Positions 49,901 through 61,161 of a stretch of 64,000 nucleotides of DNA are shown piece after piece. The notes below the pieces were generated by a model. That model worked only from the letters and a program-made list of their open reading frames with translations, made no database searches and was not told the DNA's origin. Origin of the DNA: Cetorhinus maximus (taxonomy: Eukaryota); NCBI RefSeq assembly GCF_964194155.1, contig NC_135899.1, forward strand, positions 10,788,001 to 10,852,000, in the 5' to 3' direction. A program made the translations under genes and the position numbers. Every line of letters begins with the position of its first letter. Position 1 is the first letter of the stretch.

Positions 49901-51100
49901 TTAAATTCACTTACCCCATTTTTAAAAATTGATCCATTCATGGGACCTGGGCATCGCTAGATAGGCCAGCATTTATTGTCCATCCCTAATTGCCCTTGAG
50001 AAGGTGGTGGTGAGCTGCTTTCTTAAACCACTGCAGTCCATGTGATGTAGGTACAGCCACAGTGCTGTTAGGAAGGGAGCTCCAGGAATTTGACCCAGCA
50101 ACAGTGAAGGAACGAAAATATAGTTCCAAGTCAAGAGGGTGTATGGCTGACAGGGAACTTGCAGGCGGTGGTGTTCACATGCATATGCTGTCCTTGTCCT
50201 TCTAGGCGGTAGAGGTTGTGGGTTTGGCTGATGCTGTTCAAGGAGCCTTGGTAAGGTGCTGCTTTGCATCTTGTGGTTGCTACACATTGCTGCCACTGTG
50301 TGTCGGTGGTGGAGAGAGTAAATGTTGAAGGTGGTGGATGGGGTGTCCGTCAAGTGGGCTGTTTTGTCCTGGATGGCGTTGGGCTTCTTGAGTGTTGGTG
50401 GAGCTGCACTCTTCCAGGCAAGTGGAGAGTATTTCATGATACTCCTGACTTGTGCCTTGTAGATGGTGGACAAGGCTTTGGGGAGTCAGGGGGTAAGTTA
50501 CACACCGCAGGATTCCAAGCCTTTGACCTGCTCTTGTAGCCGCAGTATTTATATGACTGGCCAATTCAGTTTCTGGTCAGGATGCAGATAATGAGGGATT
50601 CAGCAATGGTAATGCCATTGAATGTCAAGGGAAGATGGTTAGATTCTCTCTTGTTGGAGATGCTCGTTGCCTTGCATCTGTGTGGTGTGAATGTTACTTG
50701 CCACTTACCAGTCCAAGCTGGAATGTTGTCCAAGTCTTGCTATATACCGCTTCAGTATCTGAGGAGTCATGAATGGTGCTAAACATTGCACAATCATCAC
50801 TGAACACCCCACTTCTGACCTTATGATGGAAGGAAGGTCATTGATGAAGCAGCTGAATGGTTGGACCTAGGACACTACCCTGAGGAACTCCTGCAGTGAT
50901 GTCCTGGAACTGAAATGATTGACCTCCAAAAACCACAACCGTCTTCCTTTGTGCTCGGTTTGACTCCAATCAGCAGTCATTGACTTCAGCCCTGATTCCC
51001 ATTGACTTCAGTTTTGCTTGGGTTCCTTAATGTCAAATACGTGCTTGATGTCAGGGGCAGTCACTCTCACCTCACCTCACCTCTTGAGTTCAGCTCTTTT
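46950..51100 (-). mobile_element. Nested minus-strand CR1 and APE-RT LINE fragments (47735-48445, 48680-49530 with tRNA-like head, 49930-51100)
   Basis: VPRGSVLGPLLFTIYVNDLD (CR1); AGVPQGSILSSTIF and STIYKAQVRSIMKYSPLAW (APE-RT family). Confidence 0.8.
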
Positions 51101-51909
51101 GCAGGGCCAACAACAAAAATCATGGGTACTTGTGCTTCTCTTGTTTCTGGGCTCCTTATTCCCCCGGACCACCCACTTCAACCCTTCCCCTCAATCATGC
51201 ATGCTATTTTTTTCTCCCTCTCAAGATTCAACGATCAATTTTCTTTTATCGAGCATGATGAGCTTGAATCATAGCCTCCATGTTTCAAATGTTTGCAATT
51301 TTTATTCATCCATTACTGACTGTCATGCGAGTGTGGCTCAGTTTTTACCACAAGTGAATGTGTCATAAGAGTCTTTTTTTTAACAAGTGTATCTAAGATA
51401 CCAATTGGACTGAAAATTGACAGAATATGAAGAGACAAACTGAAATCGGGAAATTATATTTGAAACAAAATTTAGCTTTCAAAATTTGAGGAGAAAGGAG
51501 TGACACCGGGATAAAAAAATAAGCATTGAAATAAAAGTGAATCAATTGTATCTGAAGGAAAATGCCTTTTCTGGCTTACATGACAGCAAATGAATCAATA
51601 TCATCAAAATTAATGTTTCTTGCCAATTCATTCCCAATAATTAAAATTGTTAAATCAATTAATCAACTGTCAGCAAACCAGTCCAGCATCTGTGCTGAAA
51701 TCTGCCAACCTTTGAGGGACCCTCTGATAAGCACATATTTAAATATCCGTCAAAGGAAATTGTAAAGGCTCATGGTCAACAAGATTTTGGGTCTTAATTT
51801 TTGTTGCTTTCTGTGAAGATTGCCAAAATAAGATTACCGACAAAAACACAAACACTGGGGTGTGGGAATGTTTATTGCCCATTCCTGATTGCCCTTGAGA
51901 AGTTGGTAG

Positions 51910-52165
51910 TGTCAAAGAATAAATACAGCAAATGTATACTCAGGAAAGAGTACAATTTATTAAGCGCTGAACCGTACAATGGTCATTGGGAGCAGATCAC
52001 AATGGACATAAGGTACAAGTTAAGCATAGTCAGGATTGTTAACATTTCATGTCTTCCTCCTTCTTGTCCGTGGTGGGTTTCGGTAGGCTACGGGACAACT
52101 GGCTATTTTCTTAGCTTACTTCCTATTACCTCTCTACTTCCTATCCTGTAATATTTTCTTTCTCA
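51910..52165 (-). repeat. 3' LTR (internally deleted, 256 bp)
   Basis: Matches both ends of 57408-58548 with a junction near 52005; preceded on minus by PPT aaaaggggagac (52166-52177). Confidence 0.92.
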
Positions 52166-52198
52166 GTCTCCCCTTTTGTGCTTTGTAGCACAATCCCC

Positions 52199-54256
52199 TT
52201 AGTCCCTTCCCAGTAGTGCCATTTGCCTTCTATACTTGTCCTTTTCCCATTTGTTGATCCTCCTTCTAAGCTGGCAGGCTAAAATAATCAGGATTACAAT
52301 TATCAAGGCCTGAATAACCAGGGCATGGGAGAGAATTCTCAGCCATGGATGTACGTTTACATTCATACCCCAGTTCCAAATTTGTGACACAGCAGAGTTC
52401 TCCTTTAATAGTTCATTAGCTATGTCTTGATCAGTCTGAATCTTCTGTTTGATGGCTTTCCATTTTTGAATTATGTTGCGTGTTTCTTTTAACAGTAGTT
52501 CCCAATCAGCTCCAATCGGAGGGAGTGTAGGCAAAACAGGAGGTGCAAACTCACGTATTGTGGCATCATTGTCCGTGCGCTGTATTGTTGCATCAACTTG
52601 TAGATTAGTGTCCTTTGGTATAGGTTCCAGGGTGTCAGTTCCGAAGACTACTTGCTCTTTAGGGTTTTTAATTATTACATTATAGTCTGGCAAGGTGCAG
52701 ACGTTGTCCCGTACAGTGTAAGTTAGGTTAGTGGTTACAACATAATAGTGGGTTGAGTTGAGTGTTTTTCCAAAATATGAGCCATTATGTTTAGTCGGGT
52801 TGACATATATCAAACAATTATTCCAATGGTTTAAACCGCATGCCCATTCAGTTATGGTGGCGTAGTCTGGACACAACCAGATATCGTCTGCCTGATGGTA
52901 TTGTTCCCGTTGCAATCCTTTCATTGAGTTATTCATTATCACTGCCCACTTTGGGGCTTCTGGGACTGTCAACCACACCCTTTCCTTTACCCAGCCCACG
53001 TTTTCAACCCGATATAGTCGGGATCTCAACGTATCATCTTTGGTTTTAGGTATGTGTAGAACCATACCCAGGATTATTGTTTCCTCCTTTTTTTTGTTGC
53101 TGCTCTTAAGGTGTGGGATGCAGGTGGCTAGAGAGACGTCTTGGACATCAACATTTGCTAGGGATGACCCTAGCACCCATTTTCGTAACGTCTCTTCCCC
53201 TATCCAATCTGGCATCTGGTGATTTTTAAGCTGCAACAAGTTTTTATCTACTTGGGCCAGAACCCAAGACCCGTATAAAGTGTATACAGCATCCCTTGTT
53301 TCATTCTTTTCTTCACCCTCTTCTCTGTCAATCAGGGCATTTATCGTGTTAGTTACTGGTTTCAGGCGTTTCAAACCTTCCTGGATAAGGACAGTCAGCT
53401 GTTCACTAGTCTGGGCTGTGTCTTCCTGATCATTATACCCTTCCTGGGCTATCTGCTTCATGTGGGCCTTTAGTTTGTCAATTTCTGTTTGCAGAGTTCC
53501 TATATCTAAGTTATTTATTGTGGCTGTTCCTGCCGCATAACCTATTCCTGCAACTTCCAAGATCCCTCTCCTTTCTCGTCTTTTTTTCCCATATCCTCCT
53601 TTTGCGTTGTTTCTGAGTAGGGTTTACAGTGGCAGTGCTCACCAATTGCTCCTTTTCAACTTCTAGTTTCAACCCTGTTTGGCTAACTTCCTCTCTTAAC
53701 AGTTTGGTATGCAGGTTTCTCAGCCCATTAGGGCACCATTCTGGCATATTTAGTCTCGTCAGATTTACTGTTACTTTCTCATGGATGTATCCTGGCACAA
53801 TAATCATTCCTTCCTTTTCTGGGATTATTACTAGCCCTGTGTTTAGTGGTATTACTTCTGACCCATTCTCGAGGCATTCTGGGGGTGCCATAGTAGTTGT
53901 TTCTATTGGGGTAGGTGAAGTAGTTAAAGATGCAGTTGGGGCCAAAGTTGTTGACTGGGGCACATAGGGTGGGTCAGGGCAACTTTCTCCATTGATTATT
54001 TTGATTTTACCATCGAGGCAGCACTCAATCTTTGTTAGATCAATCTTTCCCCCTACTGCAGGTTGGAAAGTGCAATTCCAACAACTACCATTGTGGTTAC
54101 TAGTACATGTAGAATTGCCAAAAGAGTGGAGTACCCGCACTGTTGATTCTTACATGTACACTCGTTTTTATCACCCCCACATTGTTCGACTAGGTTGACC
54201 CCTTGTCCCTGCCCATTCTTTACTAACCCCACCACAAACAGACACAAGAGTAGCAT
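52199..54256 (-). pseudogene. env: Retroviral env (~685 aa reconstructed; two compensating 1-nt frameshifts, no stops)
   Basis: Signal peptide MLLLCLFVVGLV; Cys-rich plus Thr/Pro-rich short SU; furin sites RKRR and RERR; fusion peptide GILEVAGIGYAAGTA; heptad; 453-aa open TM subunit with anchor ALVIQALIIVILIILAC. Confidence 0.88.
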
Positions 54257-54327
54257 GATTACTTACAGTTTCTTATGATTTACTTAACGGTGTTCAAACT
54301 CAATTAGCTTTCCTCTGGAGCTGGTAC

Positions 54328-55669
54328 TCACTTGCAGTGAAAGGCGTGTGTCCAGGTAGGTTTTCCTTCACACTTTACCGCTGTTCTGGTTGTCAGTAGC
54401 ACTTGATAGGGTCCTTCCCATCTGGGTTTAAGGAAATCTTTCCTTTTGTGTACTTTCACAAGGACCCACTCTCCTGGTTCTAGCATATGGCACTGGAAAT
54501 CTCCTGGTTTATTTTGTGATTCTTTTACCTGTGCATGAATAGATCTCAATTGTTTGGTTAATGCTTGACAATACCGTGTCCATTTATCATCTGCCTCATG
54601 TTGATCAAAGGGTTTGGTTAGCCAGGTGGGGTTAAATCCTACCCTCATAGGGCTGCCCATTATTATTTCATGTGGGCTCAATTTCACCTCTGAGTGTGGT
54701 ATAGAACGCATACTCATTAGAGCTATGGGTAAAACTTCTGGCCATTTTAAGCCAGTTTCCTCACAAAGTTTGGTCAATTTATTCTTCAGTGTGCCATTGT
54801 TTCTTTCCCCTATTCCAGATGCTTGTGGGTGGTGGGGGGCAATGCAAGTTTTTGTTTAATACCCAAAGCCTTACATATCTCTTGCATAATTTTTCCTGTA
54901 AAATGTGTTCCTCTGTCACTATCTATACTTTCTGGTAGGCCAAATCTGCAGATTATTTCCTTAAGCAGTATTTTCGCTACCGTCATAGCATCCGCCTTAC
55001 GTGCAGGGAAAGCTTCAATCCATTTAGAGAAGGTACCTATTATAACTAGCACATACTCATATCCTAATGCCATAGGTAACTGTAAAAAATCAATTTGTAT
55101 ATTTACAGAAGGTCCACAGGGACCTATTTTAACAGCAGACTGAGTAGGTTCGCTCCTGCCAGCGTTGTTTTTGGCAAATGGCACACCTTTGGCAGAGGTT
55201 AGCTGACATTTGCACAAAACCAGGGGCATACCATGTGTTTCGGATGGTCTCAATATCCCCCCTTTGCTTGCGTGTGTCACACCGTGAGCAATTTTTGCTA
55301 AATAAGGTAACTTTTGTCTGGGGGCCACAGGTCTGCCATCTGTGGATCGCCAAAGACCATCCGAATCTTTGTGACATCCCTTAAGGATCCATGACTTACG
55401 TTCTTTGTAAGGGACAGATTCTTGTAGGGTCACAAGTTCCGATAGTAAACTAGGGAGTTTGTTTTCTGTCCTGTTTGGGAGACACAATGCCTCGGGAAGT
55501 GGGACGGCAGCAGCATTTTAGAAGCTAGGTCAGTGCACTCAATACCCTTGGAGATGTTGTCTTTGTTTCCTGTATGGGCCTGACATTTAATAACTGCAAC
55601 CTTGGAGGGAAGTTGGATAGCGGTTAGTAAGTCTTGCACTAGCTTACCATGTCGAATAGGGGTACCCAA
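54328..55669 (-). pseudogene. pol: pol remnant: RNase H C-terminus plus integrase (frameshifted)
   Basis: GTPIRHGKLVQDLL..VAVIKCQAHT; HGVTH..CQRCAIC zinc finger; IQIDF, IDSDRGTHFTG, GIGERNNGTLK (DDE); PRWEGPYQVLLTT. Confidence 0.92.
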
Positions 55670-55689
55670 GCGCAGTTAAGTGCTGCTTC

Positions 55690-57144
55690 ACTTCCCGGGC
55701 TCTCCCAGCATTGAGCTTTTTCTGTACTCAAAGGGGCACGCTGTCCCACGTGTGGACATTCGTTTTTCCAATATCCTGTTTCTCCACAGTTAAAGCAGGC
55801 ACCTCTTCCCGGGGTTGCCTCCACCCCCTCATCCTTTCCCTCTGCCTCTGCCCTTTCGTCTTTCCCCAAAATTGTTTCCCTGCAATTGGCCAAGTTGCAG
55901 AGCAATCAGTCTTCCCTCCAATTGTTCTTTCCTTTATTCTAGGCAGCTTTGGCAGTGTGAGGCAACAGCTACCAGCTCTGTGAGGGGTTTGGTTTGCCAC
56001 CCTATACAGATGCTCTTGAGCTGATTTTGGATTTTGGGCAAAAGCCCTCCCACAAAGGTGGCTGCAACCACCTTTGGGGCCATATCTCTGGGCTTGGTGA
56101 TCCCAGAGTGAGATTCCAATGAGATAAAAGATTCTAATCCTTCGCTTTAAAATATCTGCACGAGATTCATTCTTTTCCTGCTTACACTTTTGGATTTTGG
56201 ACCAATCAGCCCTTTTGGGGCATACTACATGTACTGCATCAATCAGTCATCCCTTAAAGTTGTCCAGGGCTTCAGTGCGACCTGGATCATCTTCGGGCCA
56301 CTGGACTGCTTCGAGCAGCCTTTTCTGTACCTCGCTGGGTGCTATCACTCTGAACAATTGCAGCACATCCAACCAATTGGGATTATAACACTGCATTACT
56401 GTTAGAAGTTCTTCAGTAAATTTCTCTAGCTGTTCTCTAATAGGGGGAAAATCCTTAGCTAAATTTCTCAAATCCCCTGGGATCCATGGGGCATGGCCCA
56501 TTACCAGTTTCCCATTTGCACCAGGCAGCTCTCTAAGAGGAGCTTGCATGTGCATTACTGGTTCTGCCTTTGCTCGTTGACCTCTAGTTTTTACTGGGAA
56601 AAAGTTTCATCTCCCAGGTGAGGGGTTTTCAAATATGTCTTTAGGCTTTTGTTTGGTAGGCCCCTCTTAATTGAGGACAACCAATCTGTCAGATCTGATT
56701 TATGAGAGGAACTATCTTCCTCAGTTGTTCCTGATGGGAGTAGAGGATACAAGGGTGCTGTTGGCACTCTGGCACTAATAGTCTTGTTAGCTTTCTTTAG
56801 AGTTTTTACTTCTCTCAGGAGCTTATTATGTGAGTCTTGGAGTCCTCTAAATCTGGAGTCTGCCTGTTTTTTACTGGCTTCTTGGTACCAATCATAATAA
56901 GCGTCCCACTGGTCTTGTTTAACTTTACCGCCTCCACCCTCCAGCGCTTTTCTTAAAGGTACTAATTTATCCATATCCCAAGTGCCTTCCATTGGGAATT
57001 GCTTCTTGGGATCATCTCTAGTTATCCAATTCCATTTTTTTCAAAAATTTGCAAATTATTTTTACCATAATTTTGATACATATAATAAGCCAGCGTTCCC
57101 TTTGGCGGGACCGGAACATCCCCTTTGGGTGTGGATCCGCCCAT
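55690..57144 (-). pseudogene. gag: gag (frameshifted)
   Basis: MGGSTPKG..PPKGTLAYYMYQNYG..KQFPMEGTWD matrix; PTAP and LYPLL late-domain-like motifs; PWIPGDLRNLAKDFP..YNPNWLDVLQL capsid; CFNCGETGYWKNEC knuckle (H to Y). Confidence 0.9.
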
Positions 57145-57382
57145 AGTGCACATCAACCTTTTTCCCTAGATCTAGAAACCTAGATACCTAAGTCGACTTT
57201 TAACTTTAGACAATATTGTCCTACCTTTACCCTTCGGGCCCTTTTCCTGCAGCAACCTGCAATACCTTCAAGATCGGATGACGTTGCCCCTCCTCCGGGA
57301 GTCCCCTTCAAGGCTTTCAGCTGTGGCAGTCTCCTTTTGACACCTCGCCTTCGAACTGGCTTCCCTTCAGAGTGGCGTAGTC

Positions 57383-57400
57383 ATTCAAGTCACGGCACCA
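57383..57400 (-). promoter_or_regulatory. Primer binding site, tRNA-His
   Basis: TGGTGCCGTGACTTGAAT versus the tRNA-His complement TGGTGCCGTGACTCGGAT (2 mismatches), 7 nt from the LTR end. Confidence 0.88.
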
Positions 57401-57407
57401 AGTTTAC

Positions 57408-58548
57408 TGTCAAAGAATAAATACAGCAAATGCAGGTTACTTCAGGAAAGAGTACAATTTATTAAGTGCTGAACCGCACAATGGCCATTGGGAGCAGATC
57501 ACAACAGATCTGCTAGAAGTTACAGTGTTCAACAAGCAGTATTTATACAGTGGCTCCAGCATATTCACACAGTGACAAAAACAAAAAACTACTGCGGATG
57601 CTGGAAATCCAAAACAAAAACAGAATTACCTGGAAAAACTCAGCAGGTCTGGCAGCATCAACGGAGAAGAAAAGAGTTGACGTTTCGAGTCCTCATGACC
57701 CTTCAGCAGGACTGAGTAAAGTTAGGAGAGGGGTGAAATATAAGCTGGTTTAAGGTGGGGCGGTGGTGGGGGCGGGGGGTGGGGGGGGAGAGAGAGAGTT
57801 GGGGGGCGCAGGGTGGTTGTAGGGACAAGCAAACAGTGATAGGAGCAGATAATTCACACAGTGATCCTATTAACTTGAGTGATCTTATTAACTTGCCCTT
57901 TATTCTCTTATAATTATATCTATGTTAGCTGATTGATTTTGCTTACCCATACAGTTTCTTGATTGTACATTATCTCTTCATTATCTAACAATGTACTATT
58001 CATTGCATGAGACAACATCTGATGCTTTTTATCTGAGTTATAATCATGTAACAATCAGGTAGTTATTCATCAACCATTATCAGTGCATGCAGTTATATCT
58101 CACAATAGGCAGGTAATCGGTAAGTTAACTAAATAATTACGTCAGATGCAAGACAGACAGTTTTCCAAAGACAGACAGTTTACAAGATATGTTGCATCAA
58201 ATTAGAACACAATCAACAGCCTACGAGTCATAGAATACAAAAAACAGGGAAGTAAAAAAAACAAGCTGGCCACCATACTTATGTAATTAATCACGCACAA
58301 AGTTCATTTTATTCTGGTTATGCCCCAAGAATACTTTCCTGGTTTTCACATAAAGCTTAAAATTTCATTTTAACATTTATCTGCACGCACATAAGGTACA
58401 AGTTAAACATAGTCAGGATTGTTAACATTTCAAGTCTTCCTCCTTCTTGTCCATGGTAGGTTTCGGTAGGCTATGGGACAACTGGCTATTTTCTTAGCTT
58501 ACTTCCTCTTACCTCTCTATTTCCTATCCTGTAATATTTTCTTTCTCA
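57408..58548 (-). repeat. 5' LTR (~850 bp plus a Penelope-like insertion)
   Basis: TATA (gtataaat, ~57541-57548) and AATAAA (~57458-57463) on minus; about 10 substitutions over the ~250 nt shared with the 3' LTR (manual count). Confidence 0.9.
57576..57851 (-). mobile_element. Penelope-like 3' fragment inserted in the 5' LTR, 13-bp TSD
   Basis: attcacacagtga at 57563-57575 and 57852-57864; hammerhead-like ctgctgaagggtcatgaggactcgaaacgtc on minus. Confidence 0.85.
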
Positions 58549-59241
58549 GTGGTGAGCTGCTTTGCTTGAACCAATGCAGTCCGCATGGCGTTGGTGCACC
58601 CACAGTGCTGTTCTATAGCTGTTTGATGCAGCTGAGTGGCTTGCTCGGCCACTTCAGAGGGCAGTTAAAAGTCAGCAACTTCCCTGCAGGTCTGGAGGCC
58701 AGACTGACTACAGCTTCCTTCCCTGAAGGATGTTAGTGAACCAGATGCTGTTTCATGATCATCATTACTAAGAGTAGCTTTTGAATTGCAGGTTTATTTA
58801 CTGAATTTAAAGTTCCCCAGCTGATGTGGTGGGGATTTAACCCCATGTCATTGGACCATTCATCCAAGCTTCTAGATTACTAGTCCAAGAACATTACAGT
58901 TATGCTACCATTCCCGCACCCAAGCAGTTGTGTTTTTGTCAGTAGCCTTATTTCACTAGTTTTGACGATCTTCACAGAAAAGAACAAAAAATAAAACCTA
59001 AAACCTTGCTGACCATGATCCTTTACAATTTCCTTTGACTGTTTGATATTGAAATATATGCTCATGCTGACATGCCTACTTTGAGGAAATTCGACACAAC
59101 TCAGACCCTTTCACTGTGACTCATTCTTTAGAATAAGTAGGAATCTGGGTTTAAGGCCATTGGACAGCATTGAGAGAAAGCATTGCTTGGTGAGGGCCCT
59201 TCCCTAGTGGGCAGCTGCTAACACCTTTGTTCTGTTTGAAG

Positions 59242-59499: not shown

Positions 59500-60245
59500 A
59501 TCTAGTCCACGTTTCTGTATGAATCTTATACTAATTCCGGTGCCCCATTCTCTCCACATAGCCCTGTATCAACCCCAAACTAATCCCACTGCCCTCATAC
59601 TCCCCATAGCCCTGCATCATTGCCACACTAATCCCACTGCCCCACAATCTCCCCATAGCCATGTATCAATCCCAAACTAACCCAACTGTCCCACTCTCTC
59701 CCCATAGCACTGTATCAATCCCAAACTAATCACACTGCCCTCATACCCCCCATAACACTGCACAATTGCCACACTAATGCCACTGCCCTGCACTTTCGCC
59801 ATAGCCTTGTATCAGTCCCAAACTAATTCCAGTGCCCCACTCTCTCCACTTAGCCCTGAATCAATCTCAAACAAATTCCACTGTGCTCATACTCCCCATA
59901 GCCCTGAATCAATCCCAAACTAATCCCACTGCCCCACACTCTCCCCATAGCCATGTATCAATCCCAAACTAATCCCACTGCCCCACTCTCTCCCCATAGC
60001 ACTGTATCAATCCCAAACTAATTCCAGTGCCCAGTCTCTCATCATAGTCCTGTATAAATTCATACTAATCCCACTGCCCCACTCTCTCCCCATGGCCCCA
60101 TATAATATTCCAAAAATAATCCCAGTATCCTTTTCTCTCACCATAGCCCTGTACCAATTCCAAACTAATTCCAGTGTTATGCCCTCTCCTGATTCATATC
60201 TAGTCCACATTCCTGTATGAATCCTATACTAATTCCGGTGCCCCT
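59500..60245. repeat. ~49-bp minisatellite (ccccatagccctgtatcaatcccaaactaatcccactgccccactctct)
   Basis: Period 59894/59943/59992; the array is bracketed by a duplicated atatctagtccac..ccggtgcccc block. Confidence 0.85.
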
Positions 60246-60476
60246 CTCTCCTGTCCTGCAAATATTTATCCAGCTTTTCTTTAGTAGGTGCAATGACCGC
60301 TTCCTGTGGCAAAACACGTCATGCTGCCAGAACCCTCAAATTTCACCTGACCTCACTCCCTTGTGAGAATTTGAAATTGATGACCTCTCGTCAATGACGT
60401 CTCAAGCGGGATAAAAAAAATGAATGAGTGACCTTAGGATTTTAAATATTCTGACATTCATTGTCCTTTTCATCAG

Positions 60477-61161
60477 GTACCTTGACAGGTATCTGAAGGA
60501 CTTCTTGGAGTCGGCAGAGCAGCACTTCATGAAAGGACATCGGGTGATCTACTACGTGATGGTGGACGTTGCCAGCAAGGTCCCTGCCCTGAAGATGCCT
60601 TCTGAACGGACCATGATCGTGATCCAGGTTCCCAAGCAATCCCGCTGGCAGGACATCAGCATGATGCGGATGTACCAAATCAACGACCTCATCCAGGATC
60701 GGGTCCAGTTCCAGGTCACCTACCTCTTCTGCTTCGATGTCGACCAGGTGTTTGTGGGGCGCTTCGGGGTGGAGGCTTTGGCAGACTCAGTCGCTCAGAT
60801 CCATGCTGGCTTCTTCACTGCCGACCGAAACAAATTCACCTACGAGCGCAATCCGAAATCGGCAGCTTACATCGCACCAAACGAGGGAGATTTCTATTAC
60901 CACGCAGCTGTTTTCGGAGGGAGACCAGATCTGGTTTTGAACCTGACCAGGACCTGCCTGGAGGGGATCATCAGAGACAAAAGTAAAGAGATCGAGGCAA
61001 TCTGGCACGATGAGAGCCATTTGAATCGTTACTTTCTGGATCACAAACCCACCATGCTCTTATCTCCCGAGTATTGCTGGGACCTAACACCGGCCAAGTA
61101 TATCCGATATGTCAGACTGAAATGGATGCCCAAGGAATATAAGAAATTACGTGACAACTGA
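60477..61161 (+). CDS. A3GALT2: GT6 alpha-1,3-galactosyltransferase catalytic (last) exon; A3GALT2/GGTA1-like
   Basis: catcag| acceptor; YLDRYLKDFLESAEQHFM, RWQDISMMRM, DVD, EALADSVAQIH, GDFYYHAAVFGG, WHDESHLN, LSPEYCW, WMPKEYKKLR. GT6 membership is certain; exact orthology needs a tree. Confidence 0.85.

Follow-up and report, generated by a model that had tools for sequence, protein, structure and literature searches.

A class I endogenous retrovirus of Cetorhinus maximus with a predicted F-type envelope, likely exchanged with a SnRV-like lineage

We analyzed a 64,000-nucleotide stretch of the Cetorhinus maximus genome (GCF_964194155.1, contig NC_135899.1, positions 10,788,001 to 10,852,000; hereafter the window) containing a provirus at window positions 51910-58548 on the minus strand, which is a dead endogenous retrovirus (ERV) lacking reverse transcriptase (RT). 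It quite probably combines a class I backbone with an envelope protein (Env) that is predicted to be of the F type and was likely exchanged with a lineage resembling snakehead retrovirus (SnRV) in the same host group, likely replacing a gamma-type env. The original prediction, made from the letters of the window, had proposed a chimera of epsilon-like gag and integrase (IN) with an Env captured from a spumavirus or lokiretrovirus. Separate trees of pol and Env bore out the chimerism; the proposed donor was not supported, as the nearest Envs were found on SnRV-like backbones of the same genome.

The envelope and its predicted fold

The surface subunit (SU) extends over 229 codons in three frames, from an ATG at 54256 to a furin site, and the transmembrane subunit (TM) presents in order a fusion peptide, long helices, cysteine-bearing beta domains, a second heptad, a membrane helix near residue 416, and a short tail of ~22 amino acids. 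These are the short SU and long TM originally described, and a pattern search of the 456-aa window TM likewise found neither CX(5-7)CC nor an immunosuppressive domain (ISD) pattern. The window Env has none of the marks of gamma-type Envs, namely a short TM bearing ISD and CX6CC and a match to Pfam TLV_coat. A conserved F2-like segment lies directly ahead of the furin site, and N-terminal to it is a variable module that is likely receptor-binding. The short module of the window has 12 matches, and other copies carry a different 1.25-kb module there. Two unrelated modules (window 53891-54256 versus L032:6580-7856 and L036:2244-3250 in sister copies) sit on one fusion core, each tied to one long terminal repeat (LTR) type; at loci L061/L062 of a SnRV-like family, C, a portion of the long module is matched at 38-44%, with the Env core only ~20% alike. 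Copies are mosaics that variously combine either SU module with one of two LTR types and one of two TM variants. A long region between IN and the Env core of sisters was considered as an accessory gene and dropped; in L036 it is read as a longer SU because it starts with a signal peptide and is continuous into the Env core.

Single-sequence searches of Pfam, the Protein Data Bank (PDB), and a word-based protein search with the window TM alone gave nothing useful. A search of 1.84 billion representatives supplied 30 relatives, which were assembled with genome pieces into an alignment of 56 Env rows (A1). The word-based protein search with A1 was equally unproductive; the best PDB sequence match of the A1 profile was the F protein of human parainfluenza virus 3 (hPIV3; E 0.013, 217 columns). 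An AlphaFold model was obtained from sister L032, whose naturally open Env frame is 90% identical to the window Env (pLDDT 70, pTM 0.43). The top Foldseek matches of this model were the F proteins of respiratory syncytial virus (RSV), hPIV3, henipavirus, Newcastle disease virus (NDV), and human metapneumovirus (hMPV), with E from 1e-10 to 1e-6, and foamy Env (8rm1) ranked 36th (E 2e-6). VIA aligned 325 residues of the model with 1ztm (Z 12.0, rmsd 17.5), placing model 16-426 on F 26-430 and taking in both subunits; foamy Env was not among the 50 VIA matches listed. Predicted viral structures matched by the model included F-type proteins of lispivirus and baculovirus and the Envs of walleye epidermal hyperplasia virus 1 (WEHV-1; 4e-7), feline foamy virus (4e-5), and walleye dermal sarcoma virus (WDSV; 8e-5). 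Atlas features of the homologue P0007 comprised Fusion_gly and Baculo_F clusters at 0.92, and one Env family member, L053, showed Pfam Fusion_gly similarity (E 9e-5).

By these model-based comparisons the assignment of the Env to the F family is firm, as the original claim of homology to F proteins had it. Classes Ia and Ib of fusion proteins are defined in PMC11468914, where orthoretrovirus Env is put in Ia, apart from F. In the predicted model only, the nested F core that marks class Ib is built from both subunits, and we predict the window Env to be an F-type (class Ib) fusion protein. Against this stand the poor folding of the window TM as a single sequence (pLDDT 39) and the derivation of the fold from a sister with a shallow alignment, whose TM-scores to F of only ~0.3 and high rmsd leave the F conformation less than firm. 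The F proteins of paramyxoviruses and pneumoviruses are the best structural matches, with both subunits aligned, but identity is 10-14%, and the window Env has an extra N-terminal module and a retroviral context. In such an Env, we would expect furin to cleave the precursor, the F2-like end of SU to remain in the fusion core, the exchangeable N-terminal module to bind the receptor, and TM to form a six-helix bundle on refolding, like that of paramyxovirus F.

Nine of the ten Env homologues whose origin was looked up came from sharks or rays, and the tenth from a frog. P0007 and P0013 are full-length open F-type Env frames of 739 and 723 amino acids from bamboo shark and frog, grouping at 100/100. 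P0029 joins an F-box domain to the C-terminal end of the Env family, with a weak Baculo_F match (E 0.001), and is probably a gene-model artefact.

The TM is open over 456 codons and gag, IN, and SU are broken, a pattern that would suit a TM frame domesticated by the host. We regard domestication as highly improbable, since TM is not in frame with the signal peptide or SU, and open stretches of comparable length or longer occur by chance in the sisters. Moreover, dN/dS to close sisters (0.33-0.67) is nearer neutral than the 0.09-0.24 between Env families, which reflects constraint in the past only.

Class I backbone and source of the envelope

The class I gag and IN backbone was confirmed by domain marks and by trees. 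Pfam searches of the provirus returned rve (E 4e-15), MLVIN_C (E 3e-14), and zf-CCHC (E 8e-4), and Gag_p30 fell under the cut-off in the window copy (E 0.003) and reached 4e-9 in sister L036; the class I marks present are the Gag_p30-type capsid, the integrase C-terminus of murine leukemia virus (MLV) type, and the predicted 4-bp target-site duplication (GTAG/GTGG, one mismatch). The L036 RT scored 261 bits on MLV/XMRV RT versus 41 on foamy Pol and fell inside the class I clade (support 100/100 and 100/97), and the window IN joined L036 (100/100). The epsilon-like label stood for the primer-binding site (PBS), 15 of whose 18 bases are identical to those of the WDSV reference, L105 (17 of 18 in sister L032), a type we take to be tRNA-His. 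It did not stand for RT: L036 and its fellow sister L067 lie beside turtle ERVs, apart from WDSV/WEHV, and an RT clade of F-Env class I families with WDSV/WEHV was rejected by the approximately unbiased (AU) test (p-AU 0.002).

The first RT tree was a quick tree with long rows. The careful tree left out L051, L090, L106, and 21 further rows, and rows with fewer than 120 filled columns (L039, L070, L052) were removed before it was built; the RT trees were built without loki rows. Loki RT was not recognized when motifs of L036 and of the SnRV-like family B were compared by eye with a published alignment. From 131 RT matches, 20 class I loci were sampled, of which 18 matched a gamma TM query, 11 had the ISD and CX6C motif, one had an F-type Env, and one had neither.

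The window Env is 62% identical to that of locus L068, 29-32% to family B, 18-21% to family C, 15% to WDSV, and 13% to SnRV, and RT identity between L036 and L068 is 38-39%. L068 is one LTR-flanked provirus (LTR pair 96.5%) with a second copy, L041, at 90-92%. A 15-row Env clade (100/100) unites the class I families with L068/L041. In RT, L068 groups with family C (99/98) and, with a foamy outgroup, with SnRV and family B (93/94). An Env clade forced as L068, L041, and C was rejected (p-AU 4e-34), as was an RT clade forced from the Env group (p-AU 2e-4), which upholds the predicted incongruence. Judged from these trees, the pol/env chimera is real. The argument rests on trees because WDSV's own Env matches the F-type family, so that an epsilon-like pol with a non-gamma Env, originally taken as the sign of chimerism, does not suffice.

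The sister of the window Env clade consists of family B, which has SnRV-like pol, and catshark proteins (100/98; 95/91). Transfer into class I is favored because the next Env relatives are carried by SnRV-like backbones and the near class I relatives carry gamma Env; the direction from a SnRV-like lineage to class I is therefore likely, not proven. Recombination with that lineage would have moved an F-type env into the class I backbone, where it would have replaced a gamma-type env. Since the synonymous distance from the window Env to L068 is near saturation (dS ~2, dN 0.19), the exchange is old. Env of SnRV matches the profile, and the SnRV-like proviruses of families B and C and L068/L041 carry the nearest Envs, but the window gag-pol is class I and SnRV Env itself is only 13% identical. 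Env exchange between class I and class III or SnRV-related backbones is also reported for XtERV-S and ERV-GTE (PMC10536682; bioRxiv 10.1101/2021.11.23.469661); there, the gamma-type Env moves, whereas the Env shared in the present case is of the F type and likely passed the opposite way. Family B (L046-L050, L055-L058, L063) comprises SnRV-like proviruses with a coiled-coil Gag N-terminus and an F-type Env, and the LTR pair of L049 is 98.6% alike. The coiled-coil Gag raised the possibility of a loki-like family, which was rejected because the RT motifs match SnRV.

Viral contigs yielded 17 gamma-, epsilon-, or SnRV-type records and 17 foamy records; these contigs gave no matches when scanned with family B RT and no additional foamy record with a mixed RT alignment. 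References L105, L104, and L107 were labeled WDSV, Xen1, and SnRV by comparing their RT motifs with the published alignment. With hhalign, A1 matched WDSV Env over 428 columns (probability 93.3) and SnRV Env over 261 (94.9), and the gamma controls MLV Env and Xen1 Env gave 3.9 and 0.6, in agreement with a non-gamma Env. WDSV Env had no Pfam match, and SnRV Env had only a weak one, to a membrane helix. Envs of WDSV and SnRV are likely of the same F kind as the window Env. One foamy Env aligned over 132 columns (probability 36.1, E 4e-4), on exactly those motifs previously matched by eye, and a 15-row foamy alignment over 298 (87.5, E 4e-6), with identity at 18% of the aligned columns. By hmmsearch, WDSV Env and one foamy Env scored equally well, so the order among the WDSV, SnRV, and foamy matches is not firm. 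On these alignments, foamy Env is a real but distant homologue of the window Env, sharing a long TM subunit whose core has the same cysteine motifs.

Such homology is what would be expected had the Env been captured from a foamy virus or lokiretrovirus, and grouping of the window Env clade with foamy Env is not rejected (p-AU 0.185), although the free tree separates them. Lokiretrovirus Env is likewise described as F-like, with a signal peptide, a furin site, and Fusion_gly similarity (PMC7947760). We nevertheless consider such a donor very improbable. SnRV-like backbones, with RT motifs of SnRV and not of loki, carry far closer relatives, the window family has class I pol motifs, and PMC7947760 reports none positive in a loki screen of three chondrichthyan genomes. 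Identity to foamy Env is low, as given above; the foamy Env profile scored the window TM no better than 20 shuffles, and Pfam Foamy_virus_ENV (PF03408) had no match in the window, with a foamy control reaching 1658 bits. Layout differs as well: foamy Env (~990 amino acids versus ~685 codons in the window) has a leader peptide and a receptor domain inserted between the subunits (PMC11468914), whereas the window Env has an ordinary signal peptide and a variable module N-terminal to the F2-like segment, a spike-like arrangement.

A second alternative holds that the F-type Env was inherited in an epsilon-like lineage shared with WDSV/WEHV, that gamma Env invaded neighboring lineages, and that L068/L041 took their Env from class I. 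Like the window family, WDSV/WEHV-1 have class I pol, a His-type PBS, and a non-gamma Env, and the alignment to WDSV Env begins at the F2-like strand, spans the furin site, and reaches the membrane-proximal region. The L068 line has changed Env, because its RT sisters in family C carry a far more distant one, and Chen et al. (bioRxiv 10.1101/2021.11.23.469661) treat gamma Env on epsilon-like pol as recombinant. We judge inheritance unlikely all the same. The window Env is about twice as similar to family B (~30%) as to WDSV, a clade of class I Env with WDSV was rejected (p-AU 2.5e-4, on a long branch and with L068/L041 held out), and the RT of WDSV is on a separate branch, in keeping with the rejected RT clade above. 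In layout, WDSV Env is a 1229-aa frame with a long C-terminal part, followed by two accessory frames; in the window, the TM stop is ~20 bases ahead of the polypurine tract, and no such frames follow env.

Several results besides the unrejected foamy grouping weigh against a transfer from a SnRV-like lineage into class I. RT was read in a sister 75-80% identical at the nucleotide level, the window copy lacking it; the support uniting SnRV with families B and C (93/94) is under the star level; and the AU tests on RT used a quick tree without a mixture model. The place of L068/L041 within the Env clade has support of only 53/27 and monophyly of the class I Envs is not rejected (p-AU 0.096), so L068 could have regained its Env from class I. 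Class I carriers of F-type Env as one RT clade gave p-AU 0.029; as they do not form one RT clade, a single capture would need a second transfer or a return of gamma Env.

Provirus structure and spread of the family

The provirus, whose LTRs begin with TG, end with CA, and reach beyond the interval 52199-57400 first assigned to the element, is laid out in Table 1. A host repeat found whole at ~49972-50069 corresponds to the two provirus flanks rejoined (repeat families D17 and D14). Seven bases (57401-57407) separate the LTR end from the PBS, with the same spacing in sisters L032 and L036; the usual spacing is two bases. About 2.15 kb of protease-RT is missing at ~55660.

Table 1. Features of the provirus in window coordinates
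Feature	Position	Strand	Remark
Target-site duplication, left copy	51906..51909		GTAG; one mismatch to right copy GTGG
3' LTR	51910..52165	-	internal deletion relative to 5' LTR
Polypurine tract	52166..52178	-	read from sequence
env TM (F1-like), 456 aa open	52199..53569	-	frame analysis; fold from sister model
Furin-type cleavage site	53570..53584	-	sequence reading
F2-like strand and helix of SU, frameshifted	53585..53890	-	conserved across Env family, WDSV, SnRV
Signal peptide, short Cys-rich N-terminal SU module, and Pro/Thr linker, frameshifted	53891..54256	-	
Integrase, class I type, one frameshift	54328..55340	-	
C-terminal remnant of RNase H	55341..55660	-	
Junction of 2.15-kb protease-RT deletion	55658..55667	-	common to five sister copies
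gag (matrix, capsid, one zinc knuckle), stops and frameshifts	55668..57144	-	
Primer-binding site, WDSV (tRNA-His, as presumed) type	57383..57400	-	7 bases past LTR end
5' LTR	57408..58548	-	later host-repeat insertion at ~57576-57852
Target-site duplication, right copy	58549..58552		GTGG

The TM piece has at least 79 matches in its own genome (150 of 646 candidates scored), in identity bands of ~80-92%, 60-65%, 45-55%, and 23-33%, and 40 TM-matching places were taken as 10-kb loci. Thirteen close sisters retain gag or IN; 11 of them are without protease-RT, and L036 and L067 keep it in broken form, so sister copies with RT, whose recovery had been proposed, do exist, although not with an intact RT. 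The same deletion junction occurs at six places, the window included. Amino-acid changes were scarce among variants common to nine RT-less copies: pN/pS was 0.33 in TM, 0.30 and 0.04 in IN, and 0.20 in capsid, and singletons in the same comparison gave 0.61, 1.03, 0.49, and 0.48. Because 11 of the 13 sisters lack protease-RT, the family likely spread with helper RT: after the loss it would have continued to move in particles whose RT came in trans from an intact relative. Two considerations tell against this: the shared-variant counts are small (11 synonymous and 13 non-synonymous in TM), and their signal could come from recombination with helpers.

RT is also partly deleted, with IN and env kept, in other F-Env families (L039, L070, L090, L041). 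At L051 (351-2409 and 7647-9075), a worn pol whose RT is close to IN, and which has no reference as its nearest relative, precedes a distant F-type env by 5 kb on the same strand; either a single gypsy- or loki-like element or a pair of independent insertions could account for this. Beside a sister copy, at L035:9057-9999 on the minus strand, is the remnant of a second env, likewise distant and of the F type.

Aligned over 253 bases, the two LTRs show 11 mismatches. With the substitution rate that PMC4422223 assumes for sharks, 2.2e-10 per site and year, this would date the insertion to about 100 million years ago, or much later with a faster rate. Examination of the flanking DNA revealed, ~1.9 kb from the 5' LTR, a glycosyltransferase family 6 open frame at 60424-61161 on the plus strand (Pfam E 6e-99), presumably ABO/GBGT1-like, and the provirus may lie inside or beside this gene. 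A tandem array of at least 13 copies of ~49-bp units occupies 59513-60270.

Bearing on the origin of retroviral envelopes

Epsilon Env is called distinct and uncharacterized in PMC3758190 and PMC9967133, the latter proposing a gamma-Env ancestor. The screen in bioRxiv 10.1101/2021.11.23.469661 covered gamma- and beta-type Env only and states that epsilon Env is neither; in PMC12583693, an RSV F probe gave WDSV no class I glycoprotein match. Elephant-shark SnRV-like (CmiERV lineage I) and epsilon-like ERVs are described by Pol only in PMC4422223. In the literature searched, which took in neither subscription journals nor Repbase, no paper was found to place the Env of WDSV, of SnRV, or of shark class I ERVs in the F type. 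Env swapping itself is well known.

With the alignment depth gained from these shark ERVs, the Envs of WDSV and SnRV can be linked to F and to foamy Env, and one genome shows an F-type env on both class I and SnRV-like backbones. Such sharing bears on the four scenarios for the origin of retroviral Env left open in PMC7947760, and screens of fish genomes based on gamma Env miss a whole envelope family. More tentatively, and at slightly less than even chances, the F-type fusogen may be the ancestral retroviral Env, retained in SnRV-like viruses and handed on more than once to class I backbones, its N-terminal receptor modules being exchangeable, and gamma- and beta-type Env may have replaced it later. 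The recipients would then include WDSV/WEHV and at least one shark lineage. If this is true, orthoretroviruses would use both fusogen classes, the Env of epsilonretroviruses would be explained, and the F-type fusogen would be no oddity of spumaviruses and lokiretroviruses.

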